The notes beneath the pieces were generated by a model. The model did not search any database, was not told the DNA's origin, and worked only from the letters and a program-made list of their open reading frames with translations. A stretch of 64,000 bases of DNA, from the IMG/VR virus record IMGVR_UViG_3300021440_000014, positions 32,001 to 96,000 of that record. One strand, 5' to 3'. Below are positions 1-24,940 of this stretch, piece after piece. The position numbers and the translations under genes are program-made. Within the stretch, counting starts at the first letter, position 1, and each line of letters opens with the position of its first letter. The DNA comes from a virus.

Positions 1-3000
1 AGGAGAAACTCCCGCCCCGACTTCTCTACTTACTGCTTTAGAAAGAGATGAATAGTTAGGTATTAATCCTTTTGAGGCCGGAATTAGTCCAGAATCCCTC
101 AAGTATTTAGTTAAACTTAAGTCGTTTAGACCAACTTCCCTGCTTCTTCCAAATGTTCCATTTTTTACTAGAAATTTTAATTTAGGTTGAGCAAAAGCAT
201 TAGTAATAGCCTCTGCAACCGATTCAAGTTTATTTACATTTACTATTTTATTGGAAATTTTAGCAAAATCATTTTCTCCTGCAACAGAAATACCAGTTGC
301 AGTATTAAGGGTTTTTCCTCCTAGTTGAGAATGAGTTTCATCAAATATTTTAGAAGGGATTCTACTCGTTATATCTAGCTTGTCGTCAAGGAAATGAGAG
401 TATTCATGAATTAAGGCTCTTGAAGTTTTTCTGGCGGAAATAGACTGAAGATCTTCCTTCATTCTGCCAGAGAGTTGACCGTATCCTCCTTTGAAGCCAA
501 AATTATCGTCTAGTTTTCCAGCTAAATTATCAAAATTTAAAGTAATTAAATCTGGATCATATACCGCTTTTGTGCTAGAAGATAATTTGCCCTCTATCTT
601 TCTAAAATCTTTTGCCACGTCTAATTTTGGTGTTGCGCCCACTTTACCAAGAATAAAATTAGAATATTTCTCGAAAGATTCAGTAGAGAGGGCTTTACTT
701 ATAAATTCATCAGGAGTAAGAGAAAAATTACTATAAGACTTAGGATCTGTCACCAACCTATCTTCTAAATTAATACTGCTAAATAAATTACTCGCGTAAT
801 TAGGAACTATTCCAGCCGCGCCAAATTGAGATTTCAACTCTTTTAATCTTGATTTAGATAATTTAAATTCTCCGGGATCTATAACGGTCGCCAAGCTTCC
901 ATTGGCCACCATTGCGGCAAATGTTTGAGAATTTTTATCTCCAAATCCACTTAAGAAATTAGCAGAATTTCTGCTATTAGCTAAAGCAGAAAGCTCCCTG
1001 CTTAATCTATCATTAACAGTAAAATTACTTAAATGAAGATCATCTGGCGTTATCCCATGATTTAAATCGAAATTTTCAAAAGCCTTACCTATGTATGAAG
1101 TTGAAAAAAGTCTAGTTACTGCGTCAGAAGAGTTTTCATGACTCGTTGGATCTTTTATAAACTCTTTATAAATACCTCCTTCAGATAATGAATTATTTAA
1201 AGATTTAAAAATTTTAGGAAATTTTACTCCCGGCAAAGAAATACTTTCGAGATACTTAGAGATTAAGTATTCTTTTTCAATCTCTCTAGGATCTACAAAT
1301 TTTTTAAATTGTTTAAAACCAACTGGAACGCCGCCAATTAGCTGTTTTAAATCTAGGAATCTTGCGTTTTGGCCTATCTCCCCAATTTGCTCTCCTTGTA
1401 TTCTATAATTTGGAACAAGACCAGCCGCAAAATTCTTATATGGATCAAACCCATGAACATCTTCGAAAGCTTTTTTATAGTTCGTGCCAGCTTCACTATT
1501 TTTAGGAGGAAGGATAGCGGGTTGACTCATCCCGAAGTCTTTAACTTGTTCTTTTGAGTTATAAATCACATTTCCCATGCCGGGAACTGACATCCTCTTT
1601 ATAGAACCAGCTTCGTAACCACCTAGCAATGCGCCAACCTTTTCTTTCGTCTCTTCAGGGATTAATCCTCCAGCAGCGGTCTTACCCGGAGAATTTGGCA
1701 ACACTATTTTACCAGCCTTATCAAAGCCTATCTGATTAGATTTCAAGAAATTAGCTGAAGCCTTCGATGTTACAGCGTCTAATCTAGAAATAGCCTCAAG
1801 TCTTTGCTGAGTAAGAGACAATAATGTTCTTTCTACTTCAACTTGAGAAATTGTTTTATTAAGTATTTTTTCCCTTAATCCCGGCTCAAAAGAAAGAGTA
1901 TCTTTCAGTGCCTCGGATATCTGTTTCTGTTGCAGCGCAAATTTATTAAGACCAGCAAAGCTTTTTAATGCGTCTGCCGTAAATTCTGCGAAAGATAACG
2001 CCAATTTACCTACAGCAATAGAGACTATCGCCAGCCCCGGACCAGCAATAAACTCTCCAAGTCCCTTCAAGGCACCATCAGCTATTTGTCTTCCAATTCC
2101 TTTTGACTGTTCGCCAACATCCCCAAATAAAGACTCAACTATTCCCGTCGTGTTTTTTATAACAGGAGCGATGGTAAGATTGCCAACAGTTTCACCTAAC
2201 TGCCTAAATGTCTCTTTACTCTTGTTGAGAACCGAAGCCAAGCTTTTATTATATTCTTCGTTCCTTTTGCTGGCTTCGTTTTGGGACTGAGCGGATTTTT
2301 GAGTGGCTTGATCTACTACGCTGTATTCCTTAGACAAGTCGCCAAGCAAGGCTTTTAAAATGTTAATTTGATAAACGCTACCGACAAGTTCAGCTAAGTA
2401 AGACTGTTGAGAGTCCGAAGCACTATTAAAAGTTCCAGCAAAGTTCTTTAAAATCTCTGACACTGGCAAAATCTGTTGTCCCGCCCCTCTTACTACAGTT
2501 CCCAAACTTTCTAGTTGAGCAATAACTTCTGGTCTTTCTATTCTTGTGAAAATAGTCTTTAAAGCGTTACCAATTACAGCACCACCACGGGCAGTTGTCT
2601 GCTGCGCTGAGGTAACAAAACCTATCAAGCTGTCAATACTAACTCCAGCTTCGGCAGCGGTGCTACCCACACGTTTCAGAGCCTCGGCTAAGTCTTTTGA
2701 GCTAACGGCAAATGCCGCGTCAACATTAGCGAATTTGTTAATTACTTCTGTAGACGTTAATCCAGCCTTTGAAAAGCTGTTAACCGAAGCCGTAAGAGAT
2801 TCTACGCTATCTTCAAGAGATATACCGGCTTGCCTAGATAAAATAGCCGCATCTTTAAGTCTTATAAGGGTTTCTTCCGCACCAAGACCTTGACGTGCTA
2901 ATTCAGTAGCTCCAGCCGCAATTTCAGAAAAAGACTGACCCGTATCTTTAGCTATACTAAAGATTTCGTTTTTAAAATTAGAAAGCTCTTCAGCATTTTG

Positions 3001-3315
3001 ATTTAGGAGAGTATTTAATTCAGTAAATGACTTGTTAACTTCTATAGTAGAAGAAACTAAGCTTTTTATGCCCTGAGATACCTGAAATATTAAACCAGCA
3101 GAAGCTCCGAAAGCTATGACACGCGCATTCGCAGCCGCCATAGATTTCGAAAACTCGTCTGTAGAAGAGGTTATTTGACCAAGGGGTCTAGTTAAGGAGC
3201 TTGAATTGAGCCTTCTATTAAATAAATTCTGTATTTTAGACGCACTTTCCTCAGCTTGCCTAAATAAAGGAGAAAAATCTCCACCAACAGATAAATTGTA
3301 AGTCTCAACTGGCAT
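1..3315 (-). CDS. Tail tape-measure protein with internal kinase-like and HExxH metallopeptidase domains (3' end outside window)
   Basis: Hand translation from ATG at 3315 (MPVETYNLSVGGDF...) stays open to nt 1 (1105 codons). The N-terminal half has a typical TMP core (FSIAKDTGQSFSEIA...ELARQG...FAVSSKDLAEALKRVGSTA...GAVIGNALKTIFTRI). It lies downstream of the tail-tube and chaperone genes. Confidence 0.9.
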   Translation of the reverse strand, partial: MPVETYNLSVGGDFSPLFRQAEESASKIQNLFNRRLNSSSLTRPLGQITSSTDEFSKSMAAANARVIAFGASAGLIFQVSQGIKSLVSSTIEVNKSFTELNTLLNQNAEELSNFKNEIFSIAKDTGQSFSEIAAGATELARQGLGAEETLIRLKDAAILSRQAGISLEDSVESLTASVNSFSKAGLTSTEVINKFANVDAAFAVSSKDLAEALKRVGSTAAEAGVSIDSLIGFVTSAQQTTARGGAVIGNALKTIFTRIERPEVIAQLESLGTVVRGAGQQILPVSEILKNFAGTFNSASDSQQSYLAELVGSVYQINILKALLGDLSKEYSVVDQATQKSAQSQNEASKRNEEYNKSLASVLNKSKETFRQLGETVGNLTIAPVIKNTTGIVESLFGDVGEQSKGIGRQIADGALKGLGEFIAGPGLAIVSIAVGKLALSFAEFTADALKSFAGLNKFALQQKQISEALKDTLSFEPGLREKILNKTISQVEVERTLLSLTQQRLEAISRLDAVTSKASANFLKSNQIGFDKAGKIVLPNSPGKTAAGGLIPEETKEKVGALLGGYEAGSIKRMSVPGMGNVIYNSKEQVKDFGMSQPAILPPKNSEAGTNYKKAFEDVHGFDPYKNFAAGLVPNYRIQGEQIGEIGQNARFLDLKQLIGGVPVGFKQFKKFVDPREIEKEYLISKYLESISLPGVKFPKIFKSLNNSLSEGGIYKEFIKDPTSHENSSDAVTRLFSTSYIGKAFENFDLNHGITPDDLHLSNFTVNDRLSRELSALANSRNSANFLSGFGDKNSQTFAAMVANGSLATVIDPGEFKLSKSRLKELKSQFGAAGIVPNYASNLFSSINLEDRLVTDPKSYSNFSLTPDEFISKALSTESFEKYSNFILGKVGATPKLDVAKDFRKIEGKLSSSTKAVYDPDLITLNFDNLAGKLDDNFGFKGGYGQLSGRMKEDLQSISARKTSRALIHEYSHFLDDKLDITSRIPSKIFDETHSQLGGKTLNTATGISVAGENDFAKISNKIVNVNKLESVAEAITNAFAQPKLKFLVKNGTFGRSREVGLNDLSLTKYLRDSGLIPASKGLIPNYSSLSKAVSREVGAGVSP

Positions 3316-3352: not shown

Positions 3353-4336
3353 TTATACATTACTTATCCTTAACATATCTTCCATGCTTAATTTTCCACC
3401 CCTCTTGGCGGCTTCTTTAATAAGGTTATTCTTGGAAACTTGGCCACCAAGACCTATATGATCAAGATCTTCTTTAGTCGCGCCAACCAAGGAAACGTTA
3501 GAATTATCCTTATCATATTTACTAAGAACTTTTTCGGCATTCTTGTTAGTCTCAAACCATTCTACAATCTTGTCGGGGTCGTCTTTAATATCGTCTGGTA
3601 TACCATTAGTATTAGCTAAGATGGATTTATAATATTTTGCGTGGGAAAATACTTCATTTTGATAGAAAGAAAGATGGGCAACTGGTTTGCCCCAAAAAGC
3701 ACAAGGATCTTCGCTGCAAATATAAAAATAGTTCATGAAAGAAGGGGAAATGCTTATTTTTTTTAGAGTTCTTGAGCTAAATTTCTCTGTATGCTCTAAA
3801 AATTTAGAAGAAATAGAAATATATTCATCTGGCTCCAATTCGTCATAGTCCTCTTCTGTCCAAAATGAATTTTTTAAATTTTCGTCCGAAAAAGATGACA
3901 GAAAGAAGAATTTGTCATTTATTCTTTTATCAGCGAAACTTTCTGCTGTTATACCAATTGCTTTATCTTTTTTAGACTGTAATTCCTTTATTTTCTTTTC
4001 AAATTCGGCTATCTCAAATTTCATATACTCAATCTGAGATTTAAGAAACATTTTCCTTTTGGTTTCTTCCAGTCTTTTTACGTAGTCTATTTTTTCCTCT
4101 AAATCTCTCTCTTCTTTTTGAGTCCATTCCCCGGAGGAGTATACTTCTTGCAGTTTCTCCTGATATGTTTTTACTCCTTTTTTGGCGGCTTTCTCCAAGC
4201 TATCAGCGTAAATCTCTTCTAACTCCCCAGATATGAAAATGTCTATATGTTTTACATATAGACATTTACCCTGAAAATTATACTTACTATATCCTTTTAT
4301 TATTTCGGATTGAAGTTTTTTTAAATTTTCACTCAT
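3353..4336 (-). CDS. Putative tail assembly chaperone (coiled-coil)
   Basis: Immediately upstream of the TMP gene; charged and helical; shares motifs with 4329..5078. Confidence 0.5.
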   Translation of the reverse strand: MSENLKKLQSEIIKGYSKYNFQGKCLYVKHIDIFISGELEEIYADSLEKAAKKGVKTYQEKLQEVYSSGEWTQKEERDLEEKIDYVKRLEETKRKMFLKSQIEYMKFEIAEFEKKIKELQSKKDKAIGITAESFADKRINDKFFFLSSFSDENLKNSFWTEEDYDELEPDEYISISSKFLEHTEKFSSRTLKKISISPSFMNYFYICSEDPCAFWGKPVAHLSFYQNEVFSHAKYYKSILANTNGIPDDIKDDPDKIVEWFETNKNAEKVLSKYDKDNSNVSLVGATKEDLDHIGLGGQVSKNNLIKEAAKRGGKLSMEDMLRISNV

Positions 4337-5078
4337 TAGCCGCTTTTTGCGTAGCTACTTCAACTTTATCTTCAACTGGCTTTTGTTCTGGATTTTTATT
4401 AAGCCCAACCGTGTCAGCTAATACATCAAAATCTTCTTTGTTTTCAATTCTTCCAGTATACCAAGCAGTAACCAAAAGAAGCATTTTTCTAGCGAGATTG
4501 ATATAGAAATCATCATCTCTCTCAGCAAAGTCATCATAAGTTTTTAACTTAGTTTTATAGTCTCCTTCACCGAAAAACGGTTTTTCGTTTTTAAAGAAGG
4601 CTAACTGGAATAGCCACCACAAAACAGTTTTATTTCTTGAGATAGTTTCAGCCGTGTGCTCATACAAAGACTGTTGTGAAGATTCTATGCTTTGGAGGAT
4701 TCCTCTTAAGTCAGAGATTTCATTAATAATTGCATTAATTTTATCCTTTTCTTCTTTAGTTCTTTCGTCTTCCTTTTTAAGAGACAAAGCCTGATACTCA
4801 GACTCTTTAGCTTTAATGAGTCCAACAGACTCAATATAAGTTTCTTTGTCTTTTTGGGAAAGCGTTCCTAATTCATCTGCGAATTTTACAGCCAGTTGAT
4901 TTCTAGTTAGCAGCCCTTCTTTAATGCAATTAGAAAGCGCGACGCCATAAAACATCTCTTCCTCTTCGAAAAGAACACGATTAGGTTTTCTTAAAAAGAG
5001 TTCAATTGCCTCGTATTTGTCTTCACCTTTTTCGTTTTTTACTTTTTTATAAGCCGTGAATTCGTATAATTTTTTCAT
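4329..5078 (-). CDS. Putative tail assembly chaperone (coiled-coil)
   Basis: Between tail-tube and TMP genes; helical and charged. Confidence 0.5.
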   Translation of the reverse strand: MKKLYEFTAYKKVKNEKGEDKYEAIELFLRKPNRVLFEEEEMFYGVALSNCIKEGLLTRNQLAVKFADELGTLSQKDKETYIESVGLIKAKESEYQALSLKKEDERTKEEKDKINAIINEISDLRGILQSIESSQQSLYEHTAETISRNKTVLWWLFQLAFFKNEKPFFGEGDYKTKLKTYDDFAERDDDFYINLARKMLLLVTAWYTGRIENKEDFDVLADTVGLNKNPEQKPVEDKVEVATQKAANE

Positions 5079-5299
5079 ATTTTATTTTCTATAAAAGTCT
5101 TTGTCTGATTTAAATTTGTTTTGCCGCCAAGTGTTATTAAAAAGTTTTTCTTTTTGGAGTCATCCCAAGAATTGTATAGTTTTTTAAAATCATTGGAATT
5201 AAAAAATTTTACATTTACAAATTTTACTCCAAAAGCTTCTATGGCTCTTGCTGTGCTCTGCAATTTTATTCTTTGTTCTATAATATTAACAATGTTCAT
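5075..5299 (-). CDS. Hypothetical protein
   Basis: 74-aa ORF with ATGA overlaps to both neighbours. Confidence 0.6.
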   Translation of the reverse strand: MNIVNIIEQRIKLQSTARAIEAFGVKFVNVKFFNSNDFKKLYNSWDDSKKKNFLITLGGKTNLNQTKTFIENKI

Positions 5300-5532
5300 T
5301 TTAAGTAAATCGATATCTTATCAAAATCCTGATCTATCTCTCTGGCAGTATCATTGCCACAGTCGAGAATCTTCTTTCTTATCTTTTTGAAGTCCTCTTC
5401 TTTTAAATTATATGGTGGATTTTTAATATCTTCTAATATAATTAGAAGATTTTTGTATAAGTTGGTGATTTTTCTTTGAGTTTGAAACTTAAAGAATTCA
5501 GATATCTCTTTACTCTTATCTATAGAAGCCAT
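5296..5532 (-). CDS. Hypothetical protein (start revised to ATG 5532, MASIDKSK...)
   Basis: The GTGTAA at 5565-5570 and a hairpin lie inside the track's longer ORF, which favours the internal ATG. Confidence 0.6.
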   Translation of the reverse strand: MASIDKSKEISEFFKFQTQRKITNLYKNLLIILEDIKNPPYNLKEEDFKKIRKKILDCGNDTAREIDQDFDKISIYLK

Positions 5533-5589
5533 AATCCCTTTTGAAAACCTTTTTCCAAAAGGGATTACACTTTTATGCAAATGATAGAA

Positions 5590-6912
5590 TTAACTTATTA
5601 ACGTATTGCCTACACTAGGTAAGTATCCGCTCATGAAAAGACCTCTATCGCTTTGGAGTGGACCGCCAATCTGTGAAGAAAAGCTTAAGGAAACTCCTTT
5701 ATTTGGGCCAATAGATGAGGTATATGATTGAGAATCAAGTTTAGCGTTTTTCAGCACGTATTTCATCATTGTAAAATTACCCGTCTGAGGATGAGCTATA
5801 TTTACTTCTATATCATAGTTTTTATCTTGAGATATTGCTTCTACTAAATTTCCAGTAGAGATATCACCAAGATTTGCGTCGATAGAAAGGTTTACCTGAA
5901 CAGGGAACCTAATTTCTCTACTAAAAGCATACTTGCTTCCAAGTTTTTCGAGCGGATCTCTAGAAAGTGAAAAGCTTAGATTATAACTTTGAATTTTAGC
6001 ATCAGATATTAATGCACCAAGTTCCTGCTGATTAGAACTGCTTCCGCCCTGAAGAACTTTAAAAGTAATATCTCCCGGTTTAAGAACGCTTATTGAATAG
6101 GGACTTCTAAATTGACTTGCTGTAGGAGTAGCATTAGGTCCATTTACTGAGGTAGTAAATGAAAATCCAGACCAAGGATTAGTAACGGCAACAGGCACAC
6201 ATACAAATTTTTGGTTATTATTGGACGCAGAAACATTTACAGCAGATCCATCAGCGGGGTTGACGGCTGGATTATTAATTAAATATATACCAGAGAATCC
6301 TTCACCACCTTCATAATTACCAAATCCAGCACCATTGGTAGGGAGTGGCGTTTGGAACATTATATTAAGCCCCTCTAACGAAACATTAGTAGTAGGAAAA
6401 TTGCCTACCGAACCTTCTGTAGAGAAATTAGAAATAAAACAATTGCCTAAAGAGACGAAAGATATTTTATTATAATTACTTCCATTGTTTTCGCCGTGAT
6501 TTATCGCATCAATACCTTCTGGGACAGTTTTTACAAAGTAATTTTTGTCGTCCTGAGTTTTATTAAGAATATTAGAAATGCAGCTTACATTTTGGTTAGA
6601 GCCAGAATTGATTGTGAATCCAAGCATTTGTTCATTATAGAAATTCGCATTTAAATAAGAGAAATCAAGATTAACAGTAGGAGACTCAAGAAGAATTCTA
6701 TCTATAGCCGCCAATTCCCCAAATTGGTTAACATCTCTTCTGTTCAAAGAATAACCGTAGTTAATAGATTGGACTCTAAAAAGTTGTTTAGTTAGCGGTC
6801 TTGGATTTAAACCTGTATTAACTATTAAATTATCATCATTTTGTATTCCTGTAGAAGGACTTGGCCCAACGTATAGGACTTCGTTTTGGTAAATTACTCT
6901 ATTCTTTGGCAT
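5590..6912 (-). CDS. Tail tube protein paralog 2
   Basis: Long identical peptide blocks with 6986..8245; beta-rich; tail-module position. Confidence 0.7.
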   Translation of the reverse strand: MPKNRVIYQNEVLYVGPSPSTGIQNDDNLIVNTGLNPRPLTKQLFRVQSINYGYSLNRRDVNQFGELAAIDRILLESPTVNLDFSYLNANFYNEQMLGFTINSGSNQNVSCISNILNKTQDDKNYFVKTVPEGIDAINHGENNGSNYNKISFVSLGNCFISNFSTEGSVGNFPTTNVSLEGLNIMFQTPLPTNGAGFGNYEGGEGFSGIYLINNPAVNPADGSAVNVSASNNNQKFVCVPVAVTNPWSGFSFTTSVNGPNATPTASQFRSPYSISVLKPGDITFKVLQGGSSSNQQELGALISDAKIQSYNLSFSLSRDPLEKLGSKYAFSREIRFPVQVNLSIDANLGDISTGNLVEAISQDKNYDIEVNIAHPQTGNFTMMKYVLKNAKLDSQSYTSSIGPNKGVSLSFSSQIGGPLQSDRGLFMSGYLPSVGNTLIS

Positions 6913-6933
6913 AATATCTAAATAAAATTACAC

Positions 6934-6962
6934 AAAAAAACGCGGGAATTTTCCCGCGTTTA
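6934..6962 (-). terminator. Rho-independent terminator after the major tail gene
   Basis: AACGCGGGA-ATTT-TCCCGCGTT hairpin followed by a U-run on the - strand. Confidence 0.85.
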
Positions 6963-6985
6963 TGTTTTATTATTTTATCAACTTT

Positions 6986-8245
6986 TTAGTAATCAATACT
7001 AGGAGCAAGACCGCTGAAGAACAAGCCCTTAGTCGTCTGCAACGGACCACCGATTTGAGACGAGAAGCTCAATGACACAGACTTATTAGGTCCAATTGAC
7101 GAAGTATAAGACTGAGAATCCAACTTAGCATTTCTCAAAGTATACTCAAGTGCTCTTAGAGAACCTGTTTGAGGGTGCTTAATTGCAATTCTAATGTCGT
7201 AGCTCTTATCTGCTTGAATAACGTCAACCAAGTTACCAGTGGTAAGGTCGCCAACGTTTGCGTCAACAGAAAGGTTCACTTGGACAGGGAATCTAATTTC
7301 TCTGGCGAACGCATATTTGCTGCCCAGCTTTTCAAGCGGATCTCTTGAAAGAGAGAAGCTTAGGTTGTAGCTCTGAATCTTCGCATCAGAAATCGTAAGA
7401 CCAGCTTCGTTAAGAGAGTTAGTTGTTCCAGCGTCCCAGAAGTCGAACGTGATGTCTCCCGGTCTTAAAGCCGAAATATTGTATGCATATCCTGCGTCAC
7501 CTACTCCAAGGTTTCCGCTTCCATAAGTGCCGAACATCTTACCATTAATAGCGTTACTCTTGAACGGAGGAATAGCAGCGTAAGTGCTTAATCCAGAGCC
7601 ATCAACGGGATTAACTGCTGGGCTAGGAACCCAAGATCCAGTTGCAAGTAATCCACCAGTAGCAGGAGCAACGAATCCGTTACCGCTTTGCTTTTGAGTA
7701 AATAAAATGTTAAGACCTTCTACGGAAACGCTAGTCGTTGGGAAATTACCAACGGACGCCTCGGTAGAGAAGTTAGAAATGAAACCGTTACCAATCGCAA
7801 TATATTGTTCTGGATTAGCACCGGAAAGTCCAGCATATTCAGCGGCATCAACACCTTCTGGAACAGTTTTAATAAAATAGTTTCTATCGTCTTCGGTCTT
7901 GTTAAGAATGTTAGCGATAGCAGATACATATCCCTGACCAGTATTAATGTAAAAACCTAACGCTTCTTCATTAGAGAAAGACGAGTTAAGATAAGAAAAG
8001 TCGAGGTTAACGGTAGGGGATTCAAGCAAAATACGGTCAATAGCAGCGAGTTCACCAAATTGGTTCACGTCCCTTCTATTCAAAGAGTAACCATAGTTAA
8101 TGGATTGAACTCTGACTAATTGTTTAACCTTGTAAAAACCAGTAGTTTGCCCAGCGGCAGTAACGGTTCCGTATTGCGTTCCTGTTGCAGGTGCAGGACC
8201 GGCTAGTAAACCTTCTGTTTGGTAAATTATTCTATTTTTTGCCAT
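6986..8245 (-). CDS. Major tail tube protein (paralog 1)
   Basis: Follows the neck genes; has its own GTGTAA site (8279-8284) and terminator, as expected for a high-copy protein. Confidence 0.7.
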   Translation of the reverse strand: MAKNRIIYQTEGLLAGPAPATGTQYGTVTAAGQTTGFYKVKQLVRVQSINYGYSLNRRDVNQFGELAAIDRILLESPTVNLDFSYLNSSFSNEEALGFYINTGQGYVSAIANILNKTEDDRNYFIKTVPEGVDAAEYAGLSGANPEQYIAIGNGFISNFSTEASVGNFPTTSVSVEGLNILFTQKQSGNGFVAPATGGLLATGSWVPSPAVNPVDGSGLSTYAAIPPFKSNAINGKMFGTYGSGNLGVGDAGYAYNISALRPGDITFDFWDAGTTNSLNEAGLTISDAKIQSYNLSFSLSRDPLEKLGSKYAFAREIRFPVQVNLSVDANVGDLTTGNLVDVIQADKSYDIRIAIKHPQTGSLRALEYTLRNAKLDSQSYTSSIGPNKSVSLSFSSQIGGPLQTTKGLFFSGLAPSIDY

Positions 8246-8306
8246 AAAATTATTTAATTTTTAAAATTCTAATATCTGTTACACGTTATTTTATCCTTAT
8301 AGAATA

Positions 8307-9167
8307 TTAAAGTCTTGGATTACGGACCAGTTCTATTCTCATATCTATGATGTTTGGAAATACTCCGGGGTTTAGAGTTTTTATCTCATTTACTATTGCG
8401 GATCTATAAGAGATTTGAGTAGTAGAAACGTTGGCTATACATGCCATATCAGAGAACGGTATGCTATTGGCTATTTGCGTATAGTTATAATTTCCATTTT
8501 TAGAATAACCTAAGTTATTATAAGGCATATCATTTTCAGAAAAAATAGGTATGAAAGTATACTTCTTATCCCTTAATATTGAAGAAACCGCGTCACATGA
8601 GAACTGAGAGTTAGCTAAAACTATTAATTTAATGTTAAAAACAGTAGTATCTGTGCCGCCAAAAGCAAAAGGTTCGTTAACGCTTCCATCGTTCTTAACA
8701 AAAATACAGGGGAAAGTCAGTGTTTGTGGGGCTAATCCAGTGAAAGGTCTATTAATCTTGGGTCTTGCCTCGTATTTAGTTTCAAATAGCAATTTATACT
8801 CAGGTTCGTTTGTCAGGTAAACATTAAAATCTTTGATAGCGTAATTTCCGCTAATAGTTTGGTTATTAAGACTTTGAGAAAAATATAATTGGCCTTCATT
8901 GAAATTTACGCCAGAATATCCAGACTCACCAACCGAAACATAGTTATTATTTAAATAAACTCCAGAAAGAATATTCGCATTTGGGATAGATGTATCTGCG
9001 ACTATCTGTTTGAATGGAGAAGCGTAAGCGTAGTAATCGCTAAATATAGAATCTATTCGGTAAAATTGACCGGATACATTGGTATAAGCTTCTCCTTTAT
9101 CTAATAGAGTATGATCGAGCCATAATAACACGCTCGACATTAATTTATTGTCTAATTGAGGCTTCAT
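8307..9167 (-). CDS. Putative tail completion/terminator protein
   Basis: Position between neck and tail-tube genes; FPCIFV...FAFGG core. Confidence 0.5.
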   Translation of the reverse strand: MKPQLDNKLMSSVLLWLDHTLLDKGEAYTNVSGQFYRIDSIFSDYYAYASPFKQIVADTSIPNANILSGVYLNNNYVSVGESGYSGVNFNEGQLYFSQSLNNQTISGNYAIKDFNVYLTNEPEYKLLFETKYEARPKINRPFTGLAPQTLTFPCIFVKNDGSVNEPFAFGGTDTTVFNIKLIVLANSQFSCDAVSSILRDKKYTFIPIFSENDMPYNNLGYSKNGNYNYTQIANSIPFSDMACIANVSTTQISYRSAIVNEIKTLNPGVFPNIIDMRIELVRNPRL

Positions 9168-9766
9168 TTAGTTGTAAATTTTAATTTTAAATCATTAAGT
9201 ATCTTAGAGATATAAGGAGTTGGCTTAAATGCGCCATCTCTAAGTCTGTCTATAGATTGTAAGCCCCTGCCAGATCTACTAGAAGATGAAGTTGAAAAAT
9301 TTTTCCAGTAAATATATTCCGTAAATCCAGATATACCATTTTCAATACCTCTTAACCAACTATTACCAGAATCCCAAGGAAGAGGAGTCAAATCATATAA
9401 AGTCCTATAAGAAGGTATTTTTACTTTATAGTTAAAAATTATTTTTGTGCCCCGTTCTATTATAGTAGGGGTATCGTTCATGGAAATAAGTAATTCTAAA
9501 GCCCTTAAGACATCTTCTATTGGAGTAGATCCTGAATCGAAACCTATAAACGAGAATAAATTTCCTTTTCCAGCCAAAGTCTGAGAAATATTAGAAGAAT
9601 TTTCGTCACTTAATTCTTTACTGACCTTATGTTCTTCAAATTGCTCTAATGCAGCTATTTTAGCCGCATTAAATCTTGCTTCAGCGGCATTATAAGCAAT
9701 GTTTTTCAAGGAATTTATTCTAGCCTTCCTTGTTTCGTTATTAAACTGTATTGCGTTAAATCTCAT
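9164..9766 (-). CDS. Putative neck/virion morphogenesis protein
   Basis: Position in neck cluster; basic C-terminus ending KPTPYISKIL. Confidence 0.45.
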   Translation of the reverse strand: MRFNAIQFNNETRKARINSLKNIAYNAAEARFNAAKIAALEQFEEHKVSKELSDENSSNISQTLAGKGNLFSFIGFDSGSTPIEDVLRALELLISMNDTPTIIERGTKIIFNYKVKIPSYRTLYDLTPLPWDSGNSWLRGIENGISGFTEYIYWKNFSTSSSSRSGRGLQSIDRLRDGAFKPTPYISKILNDLKLKFTTK

Positions 9767-10212
9767 TAAGTAGTGCTATACAAAGTAAAATAATAATAAA
9801 TTAACCCCTGAAAGTTTTGGACGCTTTCGCCCCCAATATTATTATAACTTATTCCATCCATCTCGAATAGTTCGTTTCTTCCGTTTTTTATAAATTCTCT
9901 GGCATCTTTTTGAACTTTAATCCTAGACATATTCACGCTAGATAAGCTTTGAACGTCTGGTTGGTTCGCAGAGTTTTGATTTTTATTATCTACCTTGATA
10001 ACCGGGAATATGCCAGAAACAGGAACCATTATAAAATTATCCTCATTCGAAGAAAATTGATATCCTGCATAAATATTCTCAGAACTGTTAACAATTACCC
10101 TTTTCGGCTCTTTATGAACAATTAAATTCCTTCCATTTGAGAATGTGTCAAAATGTCTCGCGAAAATACCTGTTTTTGAATATATTTGAGAGTCTGAAAG
10201 TAAACTACTCAT
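9766..10212 (-). CDS. Putative head-closure protein
   Basis: 148 aa, beta-rich; synteny only. Confidence 0.4.
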   Translation of the reverse strand: MSSLLSDSQIYSKTGIFARHFDTFSNGRNLIVHKEPKRVIVNSSENIYAGYQFSSNEDNFIMVPVSGIFPVIKVDNKNQNSANQPDVQSLSSVNMSRIKVQKDAREFIKNGRNELFEMDGISYNNIGGESVQNFQGLIYYYFTLYSTT

Positions 10213-10215
10213 GTG

Positions 10216-10689
10216 TTATCTCCTTTGATAGTAATCTCTTGGGCGGACCTCTATTAATTCTTCATCGCCGCAAACTTGCACAGGAGCAACGGAATTGTTA
10301 TTATATCCTTTAACAAGTTTATCAAGGGATTCCTGTTCCAGTTTTTTCATCTGAATGTAGCTCTTGCTTATTTCGTTTTTATTGACTGTTCTCACAGTTC
10401 CTCCGTCAGATGAGACTTCGAGTATTATATCCTGAGAGGCCACGCCAAGAAAACTCCTTATCTTCTTATCGTAAAAATAAATGCTATACAATTTTTTTAG
10501 TATAGCTTTTTCGTCAACATTCAATTCTGGGGAGATGTCAATAGAATCCTCTGACACTTGGAATGAAGTTGCTATTAAATTATTTAAATCTCCTATGTTA
10601 TTGACTATCCAATAACTAATAGAAGGAGTTGAAAGAGAGCTATCGTCTAGCTCTCTTCTTATTTCATCTGCAATTGATACAACTTTCAT
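10216..10689 (-). CDS. Putative head-tail adaptor
   Basis: 157 aa, helical with a beta-hairpin (VSSDGGTVRTV); first gene of the neck unit, GTGTAA at 10702-10707. Confidence 0.45.
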   Translation of the reverse strand: MKVVSIADEIRRELDDSSLSTPSISYWIVNNIGDLNNLIATSFQVSEDSIDISPELNVDEKAILKKLYSIYFYDKKIRSFLGVASQDIILEVSSDGGTVRTVNKNEISKSYIQMKKLEQESLDKLVKGYNNNSVAPVQVCGDEELIEVRPRDYYQRR

Positions 10690-20452: not shown

Positions 20453-23400
20453 TTATAACTTCCTAATAACTGTCCTGCTATCCGAATACGGACTCTTTAT
20501 GGTTATAAAATTACCAGCATTTTTAATCTTTGGATTTAAATTCGCATTAGAGTTTTTTATAATTATAGAACTTGAAGGAGCGACAAAAATCCTTGCTCTT
20601 GCAGACTGATGAACAGAAGAATAAGGTGCAGAACCAATAAGAGCTTTACCTGAAATGCTCTTGTCCAAAGATTTTCTAATTCTTGCAATCGCATTAATAT
20701 ATTTCTGAGCAACTAATGAAACTCTAGCTCTAGCAAGTATATTTTTGAAATTAGCATTCGCGATACTAGAAACAGCAAATTGATTTCTAAATACAGATCT
20801 AGATACTCTAGCAATAGAATTAATATTTTTCTGCGAAGAAATTTTAATCCTTGCGATTGCTAACTGATTCTTTAAGTAAAGAACTGATATAGAAGCCCTT
20901 GAAGACTGATTATAAGAGCTTGTTCTTGTTACTCTTGCTAACGATTGCTGGTTTTTAGCCAACGTAGCCGCAATCCTAGCTCTACCAGAGATAGACTGAA
21001 CCTGTAACGCGCTTCCAATTCTAGCAATACCAGATATATTTAAGCTATTCGTTTTACGTATCCTAGATATAGCCTGAATATTTTGAGCAGAAGATATATA
21101 AATAGAGCTTCTTGCGCTAATATTCTGAGAATAAGTTCTAGAAATTCTTGATACAGCATTTAAATTCTTCTGAGCCGAAGAAGTTATTCTTGCTCTAGCT
21201 GTAATTGAGTTTTGCTGTAATGCTGAACCGATTCGAGATACAGCAGAAATATTGTAACCTAAAGATTTAGATAACCTAGAGATAGCCTGAATATTATAGC
21301 TATTTGTTTTTGATACTCTGGATAAAGCAGATTGATTTTTATCAAAAGTTCTCTTTACTCTTGATAAAGCCTGAATATTTTGCTGTCTTACAGCAGTAAT
21401 GCGCGAAACAGAGCTTATATTAGCCGTATTCTGCTTTTGTATCCTAGATACAGAAGAGATATTTCTATTATATGTAGCTTTAACTCTCGATACGCCACTT
21501 ATGCTATAACTAGAGCTATTTTTAATTCTAGCTATACCTTGTTGGTTTTTCGAGGCAGAAGGATTGCCGATATAAGCTCTACCAGAAATACTAGAGAACC
21601 CAATGCTGTCTTGAGAAACTCTTAATGTTACCGTATCTCCCTCTAGGACAAGATAAATTCTATGATACGTTCCATCATCGGGGCAATATAGTATTACGTC
21701 ATTTCTATAGGGGCTTGAAGTCTCCGTTTGATTTATAGAAACGAATACATTATTAGAGTCTGATTCGTCCGCGAAAACATTGTAAGCTTTAGCGGAATCT
21801 TGGCAGAACAAGTTCCAGTTTAAAGCCGCAGAAGGAGGATTAGACTGATATTGGTCTATGTTTAATGTATAAACTCCATCCTGAGTTCTTAATCTTAGGG
21901 CATACCAGTTACTAGAATTTCCTAAAATTAAAACATCTGTGGAGTCCGCATTTTTAATTACTCTTGCTACCGACTGCTGATAAACGGAGCTAGGAGTTCC
22001 ACTCGAAATATATGCTCTGGCCTGCTGAGTCTTATTAACTTGACCTCTTATGTTAGAAGTTCCAGAAATACTTCTGTCTATAGCTGCTGTTCCAATCCTA
22101 GCGACAGCCTGAATGCTCTTTATAGCTGGGGCTTTAACATTCGCTAAAGACTGAATATTTTTGCTATAAGAAACTTTTATTCTAGATATAGAGCTTTGAT
22201 TTTTGCTGCTCGTTAAAGATATCCTAGATATAGCCTGTTGGAATTTTAAGCTGGAATTGGATATTCTTGCTCTTCCTTGAATATTATTCTGTTTTGCGGA
22301 AGTTATTCTTGAAACAGATTGAATATTATAATTAGAAGCTTTCGATAATCTAGATATAGCAGATTGATTTTTCGAGAACGAAGCAGAAATTCTAGCAATC
22401 GACTGCTGATTCTTGGATATAGATATTTTTATCCTAGAAATGGCTTGAATACTATACAGCCTAGAATTGGCGACACGCGCCAAAGCCTGTATATTATTAT
22501 TACCTTTAGTCGCTGTTATTCTGGCTATACCTTGCTGATTTTTGGAAACAGAAGAGGTTATTCTAGAAACGGACTGAATATTATAAAGCTTAGAATTAAC
22601 AACTCTCGATATAGATTGTATGTTGTTATTATTCTTTGTGGCTGTTATTCTGGATAGAGCCTGCTGATTCTTTTGAGTAGAAATGAATATTCTAGAAACA
22701 GATTGGATATTATAAAATCTAGCATTGACTATTCTTGCCGTGCTCTGGATGAAATAGTTTTTACCAGAAGTAATTCTTGATATCGCTTGTTGATTTTTAT
22801 TTAGTGAATTTCTAACGGAAGAAATAGACTGAATAAATTTTTGGCCAGACGCAGTAATCTTAGCGACAGAAGATATATTCTTGAATAAACTATTACTAAT
22901 TCTAGCTCTTGCTTGCTGGAAATTATTAGTTTTAGCAGACGTTATTCTTGAGACTGCACTTAAATTATAATTACGACCAACGGAAATCCTAGAAATACCC
23001 TGTTGGTTCTTCTGAAAACTATTAGATATCTTAGCGATACCCTGAATACTTTTATTATTAGATACTGTTATCCTTGATCTTCCAGATATAGAATAATCTA
23101 AAGTTTTCGAAACCCTAGCCAAAGATTGCTGGTTCTTCTGATTGGCTATGTAAATTCTAGATATCGACTGGATATTTTTCGCTGAAGAATTTGACAGTCT
23201 AGATACAGAAGAAATATTATACTGACTACTTCTACTTACTCTAGAAATAGCCTGTATATTATAAAATTTAGATAAAGATATTCTTGATATCGCCTGCTGA
23301 TTTATAAAAGAAGATTTATAAATTCTGGCAACAGACTGTATATTTTTGGATACACTTGACTGAATTCTAGCTTTAGCTTGCTGATCCGCAGAGTCTACAA

Positions 23401-24940
23401 CTTTAATTCTAGATACTGCTTGAATATATTCTAGGTTAAAATTAGAAATTCTAGATATAGCCTGAATGTTTTTCTGGGTAGACTGTAAAATACTAGACTT
23501 ACCTTGTATATAATAATTGGAAGTAGAACTTCCTCCCCCGCCACCAGAAGGCGCATTACCAGTAAAAGGATTTAAAGCAACGGCATGTAAAAGAGCATTT
23601 GATGCCGCCATTTCAACGCTAATGTAGCCGCTTGTAAAAATGTCTCTTTCATCTAAACCATCGTTTGTAGTGCTAAACGCTGCGTTTGGCTGAGTATTAT
23701 AAACAGTTAAAGTTCCAGAGGTTCCAGATCCACCAACATCATTTGCGTATGTAAAGTTTACCGCAAATCTTTGGCTGGGACTACCAGTGACAAGAAAATC
23801 ATACCTTGGTGAAGCTTTATATCCTGAAAATTTAGATCCAGTTGGACTTGTTAAATTAACTCCAGAATATTCTATTAAACCGGCAGCTAAAGTAATTGTA
23901 TCGAAAGCCCCGCCAGTGCTTTGAATTCTTACTGTAAATGGATTATTACCAGTTCTGGGATTTAAAAGATAATATTGGTGAGCGTGATTCCAAAATGGAT
24001 CAATCGTCTTACCTATCTCCGTAAAAACTTGATCTCCCCAACAAACACCAGAAATTCCAGAAGGATTAATGCCAGTTGTTACATTACTTTGATTATATGT
24101 AATGTTAGCTATTAATATTGTATTATTATTCGAGTAAGAAGTAAACCCAGAATAAGAAACTACGTATCCGCTACTTGAGGGATCGAAAATAGATCTTTCT
24201 CCTTTGCCGGATATTAAGGCAATTGTAGTTGGCCTGTATAAAGATGCTACGCTAGATTGATTTCTACTATTTTGCCTAGTAATTCTAGAAATACCCGAAT
24301 TACGACCATAGCCCCAAGTCGTAATAGGGTTAGAGAAACCAAGCCAAGGGTTGCCCGTTTGAGTTCCAGACTCTATATAAGGCAAATCTCCAGATTGTGC
24401 ATTGTAACCAAATCTATGCGTCGCCGTTCTAGATGTCGCCAACGCTTCGTAGGCTATAAAACCAACTTCAACAACTAATCTATCACCACCAGAAACGTTA
24501 ATATTTCCGCTGACTCCAGTATAAGGAGGGAAAAATCTTCCGCTTAAAGTAGGGGATAGAGGAAACTCCTGAGATGTTCCAGAATTGGGAAATCCAGAAT
24601 AAATTACGGCTCTTAAAGCGTTAGTAGGAGTAACAGCTTTAATAAGTATAGCATACTGCTGGTTAGCTAATAAGTTATTCTCGGAAACTTGAATGATACC
24701 GCTAATAAAACCGCTAATAGACTGCGTGGCTAATTCATCAGAAACGTATTGGCGAGTAAGAACCCTATAAGGGGTTGTAGCGATTGCTTTTGTGCTTAAC
24801 TTTCCAGTAAAAGCATGGTTAACTGGATTTATGCTGAGGTATCTTTTATCCGCTTCAGTAGTTCTATTCCAGCCGCTCTCGTAATTAATGTTCGTTACGG
24901 GCGCATTACCAGACTGAATAAAATAAAAACGATATGGCAT
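20453..24940 (-). CDS. 1495-aa virion-associated repeat protein
   Basis: Two N-terminal globular domains, a Gly linker, then dozens of 14-15-aa repeats (..KNIQ.ISRI) interrupted by a triple CPDDG-type module. Confidence 0.7.
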   Translation of the reverse strand: MPYRFYFIQSGNAPVTNINYESGWNRTTEADKRYLSINPVNHAFTGKLSTKAIATTPYRVLTRQYVSDELATQSISGFISGIIQVSENNLLANQQYAILIKAVTPTNALRAVIYSGFPNSGTSQEFPLSPTLSGRFFPPYTGVSGNINVSGGDRLVVEVGFIAYEALATSRTATHRFGYNAQSGDLPYIESGTQTGNPWLGFSNPITTWGYGRNSGISRITRQNSRNQSSVASLYRPTTIALISGKGERSIFDPSSSGYVVSYSGFTSYSNNNTILIANITYNQSNVTTGINPSGISGVCWGDQVFTEIGKTIDPFWNHAHQYYLLNPRTGNNPFTVRIQSTGGAFDTITLAAGLIEYSGVNLTSPTGSKFSGYKASPRYDFLVTGSPSQRFAVNFTYANDVGGSGTSGTLTVYNTQPNAAFSTTNDGLDERDIFTSGYISVEMAASNALLHAVALNPFTGNAPSGGGGGSSTSNYYIQGKSSILQSTQKNIQAISRISNFNLEYIQAVSRIKVVDSADQQAKARIQSSVSKNIQSVARIYKSSFINQQAISRISLSKFYNIQAISRVSRSSQYNISSVSRLSNSSAKNIQSISRIYIANQKNQQSLARVSKTLDYSISGRSRITVSNNKSIQGIAKISNSFQKNQQGISRISVGRNYNLSAVSRITSAKTNNFQQARARISNSLFKNISSVAKITASGQKFIQSISSVRNSLNKNQQAISRITSGKNYFIQSTARIVNARFYNIQSVSRIFISTQKNQQALSRITATKNNNNIQSISRVVNSKLYNIQSVSRITSSVSKNQQGIARITATKGNNNIQALARVANSRLYSIQAISRIKISISKNQQSIARISASFSKNQSAISRLSKASNYNIQSVSRITSAKQNNIQGRARISNSSLKFQQAISRISLTSSKNQSSISRIKVSYSKNIQSLANVKAPAIKSIQAVARIGTAAIDRSISGTSNIRGQVNKTQQARAYISSGTPSSVYQQSVARVIKNADSTDVLILGNSSNWYALRLRTQDGVYTLNIDQYQSNPPSAALNWNLFCQDSAKAYNVFADESDSNNVFVSINQTETSSPYRNDVILYCPDDGTYHRIYLVLEGDTVTLRVSQDSIGFSSISGRAYIGNPSASKNQQGIARIKNSSSYSISGVSRVKATYNRNISSVSRIQKQNTANISSVSRITAVRQQNIQALSRVKRTFDKNQSALSRVSKTNSYNIQAISRLSKSLGYNISAVSRIGSALQQNSITARARITSSAQKNLNAVSRISRTYSQNISARSSIYISSAQNIQAISRIRKTNSLNISGIARIGSALQVQSISGRARIAATLAKNQQSLARVTRTSSYNQSSRASISVLYLKNQLAIARIKISSQKNINSIARVSRSVFRNQFAVSSIANANFKNILARARVSLVAQKYINAIARIRKSLDKSISGKALIGSAPYSSVHQSARARIFVAPSSSIIIKNSNANLNPKIKNAGNFITIKSPYSDSRTVIRKL

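Follow-up and report, generated by a model that had tools for sequence, protein, structure and literature searches.

The tape-measure protein (TMP) of an uncultured phage is interrupted, directly after its N-terminal core, by what structural models portray as a bounded string of folded domains, in which exchangeable "cassettes" are separated by a short conserved linker peptide and enclosed between two conserved bookend modules, here called A and D. The gene lies at the left end of a 64,000-nucleotide stretch of viral DNA (the window), comprising bases 32001-96000 of the IMG/VR virus record IMGVR_UViG_3300021440_000014, which has 172,010 bp, a G+C content of 35% and is rated complete. On balance, we slightly favour the explanation that this array carries host-directed effectors that would enter the cell together with the TMP, and that the linker would act as a processing signal.

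The bounded array and its linker peptide

An earlier note, made from the letters of the window alone, had described a tape-measure open reading frame (ORF) that continues beyond the window, which turned out to be correct. In the whole record the gene (genome 26358-35315) encodes 2985 amino acids (aa) and extends 5643 nucleotides (nt) past the left window edge. Its TP901-type core spans residues 30-445 and matches TIGR01760 (E 8e-37, 127 bits versus a curated cut-off of 28.8), PF10145 (E 7.6e-24, 85 bits versus a cut-off of 33.2) and several TMP PHROGs. The core is followed by linker 0, module A, linker 1, a kinase-like cassette (K), linker 2, a cassette with an HExxH motif (Z), linker 3, module D, linker 4 and the remainder of the TMP. 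The features are as follows, with confidence of the structural models given as predicted local distance difference test (pLDDT) values:

Window 1..3315 (-): TMP gene, first 1105 codons; ORF open at its 3' end
Window 2098..3081 (-): TP901-type TMP core; TIGR01760 at aa 79-406, PF10145 at aa 122-311
Window 1657..1677 (-), aa 547-553: linker 0, degenerate motif (AAGGLIPEE), starting at 1677
Window 1429..1656 (-), about aa 554-629: module A, opening bookend; conserved small alpha/beta domain, pLDDT >90
Window 1405..1428 (-), aa 630-637: linker 1, motif (AAGLVPNY), pLDDT <50
Window 820..1404 (-), aa 638-832: K cassette, truncated protein-kinase-like domain by catalytic motifs and fold
Window 796..819 (-), aa 833-840: linker 2, motif (AAGIVPNY), pLDDT <50
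Window 79..795 (-), aa 841-1079: Z cassette, putative gluzincin with HEYSH and ESVAE
Window 52..78 (-), aa 1080-1088: linker 3, motif (ASKGLIPNY)
aa 1089-1156 (-), first 17 codons at window 1..51, remainder beyond the window: module D, closing bookend, conserved
aa 1157-1165 (-), 153-179 nt past the window edge: linker 4, motif (AADGLIPNY), the last copy in the protein

The motif copies had been placed exactly by the earlier note (AAGGLIP from 1677, AAGLVPNY at 1428-1405, AAGIVPNY at 819-796 and ASKGLIPNY at 78-52), and they do mark module boundaries; the two bookends and the end of the array just past the window had been missed. Additional cassettes, which had been anticipated beyond the window, do not follow: only the conserved module D and linker 4 are found there, succeeded by about 1800 aa of ordinary TMP with glycine-rich hydrophobic segments.

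The sequence G-[LI]-[VI]-P-N-Y starts at aa 632, 835, 1083 and 1159 of the TMP, three times within the window and once outside, and a degenerate fifth copy (G-G-L-I-P-E-E) is located at aa 550, a position occupied by a full G-F-I-P-N-F in most homologues. All four PNY tripeptides of the protein fall inside the motif, 20,000 protein shuffles gave a mean chance expectation of 0.0026 copies in the TMP, and the strict motif is absent from every other ORF of at least 60 aa, in any frame, of the 172-kb genome. According to the models, the linkers between the confidently folded domains are low-confidence and probably flexible.

A HMMER scan of 1.84 billion representative proteins (50%-identity level) with aa 540-1170 as query yielded 749 matches at E <=0.001 and 129 at E <=1e-30, and a word-indexed search returned 255 matches. 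The matches comprise giant TMPs of 1.8-5.4 thousand aa and shorter ORFs that are probably partial, all of them from metagenomes or metagenome-assembled genomes (MAGs). Among the 246 relatives retrieved, on which the family statistics are based, strict motifs occur 1183 times compared to 2.35 expected from shuffles, with 1-13 copies per protein in the first 121 retrieved. The linker consensus reads A-[SA]-x-G-[FL]-[IV]-P-N-[FY]-[AS], and its P and N hardly vary in alignments anchored on the flanking modules and not on the pattern. These flanking modules share just about 40-60% identity, yet the linker peptide is kept.

Module A is present in 237 and module D in 245 of the 246 relatives. Where both occur (236 proteins), 232 lack a motif before A and 222 lack one after D. 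The array thus enclosed measures 276-2797 aa and is the main source of the differences in protein length (r = 0.80); outside of it the TMPs are near-constant at about 2000 aa (median about 1965 aa). P0068 and P0071, the only such cases among the 236, have reversed bookends: D comes first (about aa 570-643) and A last (about aa 1350-1540). Module A has no sequence match in Pfam, NCBIfam or the PDB; likewise, scans of modules A and D and of cassettes K and Z against Pfam, NCBIfam and PHROG returned nothing, and PDB sequence and profile searches of the array segments gave noise only. Compared with each other, A and D reach an hhalign probability of 81%, a score inflated by their common flanking motifs, and they may be distant relatives.

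Cassettes and their exchange between relatives

The approximately 195-aa kinase-like domain suspected between the second and third motif copies is borne out by conserved catalytic motifs and by its fold. An alignment of 21 copies from related TMPs shows five invariant residues: K668 (the beta3 lysine), E682 (the alpha-C glutamate), D759 and N764 of a D-L-H-x-x-N catalytic loop, and D813, the aspartate of a D-P-G motif. The structural model has a bilobal kinase fold, in which an N-lobe beta-sheet with an alpha-C helix is joined by the catalytic loop region. Foldseek matched it to PRPK/Bud32, Rio2, Chk2 and many further kinases in the PDB with a probability of 1.0, and an ESM Atlas search returned Pkinase, RIO and ABC1 clusters. 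Unlike a canonical Pkinase domain, with its activation segment, APE and helices alpha-F to alpha-I, K ends about 20 aa past the DPG and so lacks the entire C-lobe, and it harbours a helical insert of about 49 aa between the catalytic Asn and the DPG. No match to the Pkinase, RIO1, APH or Kdo models of Pfam was obtained at E values up to 10, and identity to minimal kinases (Bud32/PRPK, Rio1/2, Ark1 and the ABC1-type Rv3197) is 13-20%. Judged by its motifs and modelled fold, K is a protein kinase devoid of a C-lobe that retains the complete catalytic set.

The case is more mixed for the zincin-like peptidase of about 240 aa claimed between the third and fourth copies, which is backed by sequence motifs and not by structure: HExxH and a downstream ExxxE are conserved, and fold modelling and searches gave no zincin. 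HEYSH is located at aa 970-974 (window 394-408) and ESVAE at aa 1031-1035. H970, E971 and H974 are invariant in the three known copies of Z, i.e., this one and two homologues at 29-31% identity, as are E1031 and E1035, which lie 61-65 aa downstream of the HExxH, a spacing that we take to be compatible with the third zinc ligand of gluzincins. The chance expectation for an HExxH is 0.0015, and the whole TMP holds just 8 His. The motif sits in a helix predicted with low confidence, within an AlphaFold2 (AF2) model that is poor overall (pLDDT about 45-55, from 3 sequences only). A wide VIA-align search matched just a long helix of this model and Foldseek returned nothing; sequence searches against Pfam, NCBIfam, PHROG and the PDB gave no match, and word-indexed searches of proteins of 423-2000 aa and 143-466 aa revealed no further Z homologues. 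ATLF, a weak Atlas feature lead (score 0.83, 17% of one cluster), was not relied on. Z is best described as a putative zincin peptidase.

Related TMPs had been predicted to carry variable cargo between conserved motifs, and they carry different cassettes, which excludes an invariant content: BLAST-level clustering sorts the inter-motif segments into 228 groups, of which 147 have a single member, and these represent at least 228 cassette types. K itself occurs in about 20 TMPs, where it starts anywhere between aa 612 and 2434 and is sometimes found twice per protein. Pfam searches with 149 cassette representatives identified SNase (2), ART-PolyVal (in one cassette of a homologous TMP), Phage_CI_repr/HTH_3, Sigma70_r4_2, WYL_2, HHH_3 and others, a content that looks as expected of host-directed conflict proteins.

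In five pairs of related TMPs the array regions differ mostly by whole cassettes, with breakpoints at the motifs (at a resolution of 10 aa). A 74-aa module is present once or twice, cassettes are replaced between motifs, and cassettes of 150 and 190 aa are present or absent; two of the five pairs diverge in the C-terminal TMP as well. Sequence comparison shows that cassettes are gained, lost, duplicated and replaced as whole units, while the core, module A, the linkers, module D and the C-terminal TMP stay constant.

The commonest cassettes are those just after module A, which form clusters of 64, 39 and 44 TMPs (P0078:627-909, P0037:627-884 and P0087:659-897). All three clusters have an invariant Glu followed by an Asp and a [DE]-x-K, and two of them are homologous over this core (hhalign 93%, E 3e-7). 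The arrangement looks like the core of a PD-(D/E)xK nuclease; PDB profile searches and an Atlas search with these cassettes gave no support for a nuclease.

Genome setting and distribution of the family

Homologues of gpM, gpL, gpK, gpI and gpJ, i.e., a lambda-like tail-tip set, adjoin the TMP gene on the opposite strand in convergent orientation, and in relatives Phage_min_tail and Phage_tail_L genes are located downstream of the TMP. Since a TP901-type core lies beside lambda-like tail-tip genes, the phage is, by gene content, a large siphovirus. The tail-tip set left of the window (L002:1731-9506, +) consists of two gpM-like genes, gpL, gpK, gpI and a 1431-aa gpJ-like gene, and its transcription towards an opposite-strand TMP gene is unusual among tail modules. 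The ten ORFs of 74-440 aa that immediately precede the TMP gene (window 3353-10689, -) have no PHROG match at E <=0.001, although genes for the tube and the chaperones would be expected in this place. A 1495-aa ORF in the same strand block (window 20453-24940, -) has neither a PHROG match nor the PNY linker motif.

The C-terminal TMP contains a second conserved peptide repeat, which is unrelated to the PNY linker. It is present in two copies beyond the window (aa 2575-2615 and 2815-2855; L002:10358-19315, -), each comprising a G-G-rich stretch and then D-x-[VI]-P-A-M-L-T-x-G-E-[YF]-V-[IV]-K-[RK]-S-A-V. In one relative (L006:4469-9555, a 110-kb ENA entry) the TMP is encoded by two ORFs, a 512-aa PF10145 core and an 1184-aa ORF whose start lies about 30 aa ahead of the first linker and of module A. 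The two ORFs overlap by 7 nt (ATGTTGA), and the gene may truly be split in two, or the arrangement may reflect a frameshift site or an error in the assembly.

A tblastn search with aa 540-1170 against 50,697 phage records gave no match, and with the whole TMP cultured Bacillus, Brevibacillus and Staphylococcus phages match in the N-terminal core only. Module A was found in three MAG contigs assigned to Flavobacteriales or Flavobacteriaceae (L003, L004 and L005; 59-68% identity to the query set). These are the only clue to the host and hint at Flavobacteriales.

Possible functions of the array and its relation to known systems

Since the TMP is the first to leave the tail at infection, the cassettes probably act on the host as effectors and enter along with it. 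Within this scheme the kinase cassette would phosphorylate host proteins, and the cassettes of relatives would bring in nuclease, ADP-ribosyltransferase (ART) or DNA-binding activities, with a fixed scaffold of module A, linkers and module D accepting any folded cassette. More speculatively, the linker would signal processing or handling of the protein, most probably by marking a site at which it is cut so that the cassettes come free; cleavage might be due to a protease, or conceivably to self-cleavage at the invariant Asn, for which viral capsid maturation provides precedents. The linkers would also mark the sole places where cassette exchange keeps the protein working. A fuller picture, which is tentative and less likely than not, is that of a widespread family of uncultured siphophages, probably living on Flavobacteriia or other Bacteroidota, in which the TMP would be a modular effector magazine, the linker would be cleaved, possibly by itself at the Asn, and the enzymes (kinase, nuclease, ADP-ribosyltransferase, peptidase) would be released into the host ahead of the DNA.

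Several points weigh against the effector explanation. Delivery, cleavage and enzymatic activity are deduced and not observed, and Pfam gave no match for at least 135 of the 149 representative cassettes, so that the term "effector" is extrapolated from a few. The glycine-rich loop GxGxxG, kept in most copies of K, is degenerate in the protein studied here (IGEIGQNA). Z occurs in 3 of 247 TMPs and hence is not a general processing enzyme, and no protease conserved alongside the array emerged. The kinship of A and D leans partly on the motifs that flank both. Finally, a tail lumen of about 4 nm offers little room for three folded 22-kDa kinase domains side by side; the array may accordingly be present in the tube in unfolded or extended form, lie at another site, or be cut away prior to virion completion.

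A conserved and, by the models, exposed hexapeptide between folded domains fits a docking motif as well as a processing site. The linker could accordingly be a short peptide that docks to a common partner, such as the tail tube lumen, a tail assembly chaperone, modules A and D, or a host chaperone or translocon; while the tail is assembled and the TMP ejected, this contact would keep the cassettes in place or guide them through, and the TMP would stay whole. A hydrophobic-Pro-Asn-aromatic peptide in low-confidence regions is usual for short linear motifs, modules A and D always accompany the linker, and no candidate protease turned up. Yet no partner emerged, AF2 placed no linker on A, K or D within the same chain, and such strict conservation is typical of protease sites too. 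We regard docking without cleavage as unlikely.

A less probable alternative places the action of the cassettes in tail assembly or in the cell that makes the phage, rather than in the host infected next. The array and the rest of the N-terminal part would then be trimmed or left out of the tube, and the approximately 1800 aa after D would measure the tail. This would relieve the problem of the narrow lumen, and it agrees with a length that is fairly constant outside the array and varies tenfold within it, with the relative that encodes the core in an ORF of its own, which stops some 30 aa short of the first linker, and with the processing of the lambda and T5 TMPs. However, kinase, ART-PolyVal, nuclease and helix-turn-helix domains are typical of proteins injected with phage DNA, the fusion of a late-acting enzyme to a virion protein has no obvious benefit, and the fast turnover of cassettes resembles an arms race more than an assembly role.

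We consider it highly improbable that the motif is mainly a junction for recombination at the DNA level, devoid of a role as a peptide. The suggestion that it serves as a recombination junction stands in so far as cassette replacements and indels break at motifs; but breakpoints at linkers are expected anyway, because only such events leave the domains intact. The four copies differ in their codons for G, L/I, V/I, P, N and Y, which argues for selection on the peptide, and the stretches of identical DNA that they share are short, so that homologous recombination is not the reason for the conservation of the motif. Its persistence between modules that have diverged as far as described above speaks for the same: what is conserved is the peptide, and the motif makes a weak candidate for a DNA recombination site.

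That the protein is an ordinary TMP, with the motif as a periodic structural repeat (TMPs do contain repeats with conserved aromatic residues) and a chance likeness to kinase and HExxH, is hardly credible: the motif spacing is irregular, and the inter-motif segments are not the ordinary TMP helices that would have refuted the initial description, as they fold as globular domains, one of them a kinase.

The counter-defence proteins of phages are usually pictured as early gene products or as head-packaged proteins. If the effector explanation is true, a TMP-borne array would put ready enzymes in the cell before the phage DNA, when restriction and abortive-infection systems act, and would represent both a new way in which phages deliver effectors and a natural plug-and-play platform for protein delivery, whose scaffold could inform engineered delivery by phage tails or tailocins. 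The family furthermore amounts to a catalogue of hundreds of family-less candidate host-manipulating domains with clear boundaries, and linker and bookends together provide a testable rule for cargo exchange and perhaps release. In phages bearing such arrays, TMP length is not a simple readout of tail length.

Full-text literature searches retrieved no description of the motif or of a TMP-embedded multi-cassette array; the architecture, which is no artefact and is known from uncultured phages only, appears not to have been described so far in the literature searched. Several known systems share some of its traits. The TMPs with cell-wall enzymes (the Rpf-like motif of mycobacteriophage TM4, Pb2 of T5, the transglycosylase YomI of SPbeta) likewise carry a non-structural domain for host entry, and the N-terminal core of the protein described here recurs in the SPbeta and Sundance TMPs. 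They have one or two peptidoglycan-directed domains and neither array nor linker motif nor bookends, whereas the cassettes of the present family seem to be aimed at targets in the cytoplasm, with a kinase here and nuclease, ART and helix-turn-helix domains in relatives.

The closest analogy to a motif that is both junction and cleavage site is offered by polymorphic toxins, in which a short peptide borders the scaffold and the exchangeable cargo, as in CdiA-CT after VENN or in Rhs tips after DPxGL, the latter motif being self-cleaved. Polymorphic toxins are substrates of bacterial secretion whose one cargo, at the C-terminus, is paired with a cognate immunity gene; in contrast, the TMP, a structural protein of the phage, holds many serial cargos internally, and immunity genes were not seen. 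The effectors Tme and Sle1 of contractile injection systems employ a TMP-like coiled-coil carrier that is loaded in the tube, ejected, and equipped with an exchangeable domain (PMC11126660, PMC13277306). They belong to bacterial systems and bear one C-terminal domain, and they lack both a linker motif and an array of several cassettes.

The polyvalent proteins of phages and conjugative elements combine conflict domains in one polypeptide; their repertoire includes a kinase without C-terminal subdomain, zincin peptidases and ART domains, and it has been suggested that the domains are set free by proteolysis (Iyer, Burroughs, Anand, de Souza, Aravind 2017, PMC5512222). The array resembles them in joining unrelated domains within a large virion or transfer polypeptide and in shuffling them between relatives; K is truncated like their kinase, and ART-PolyVal is their signature domain. 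In that paper "tape" occurs 0 times, and a text search of it encountered no TMP embedding, bookends or universal linker. In the polyvalent kinase, as described there, the conserved His and Asp are split by an insert, whereas K has a contiguous D-L-H-x-x-N, and K may stem from a different kinase lineage. A further difference concerns the carrier, which here is a TMP and not a typical polyvalent anchor. Such anchors are a head-packaged MuF-type protein, a virion RNA polymerase or a conjugation protein. Considering these likenesses and differences, we infer that the array is a tail-borne counterpart of the polyvalent proteins.

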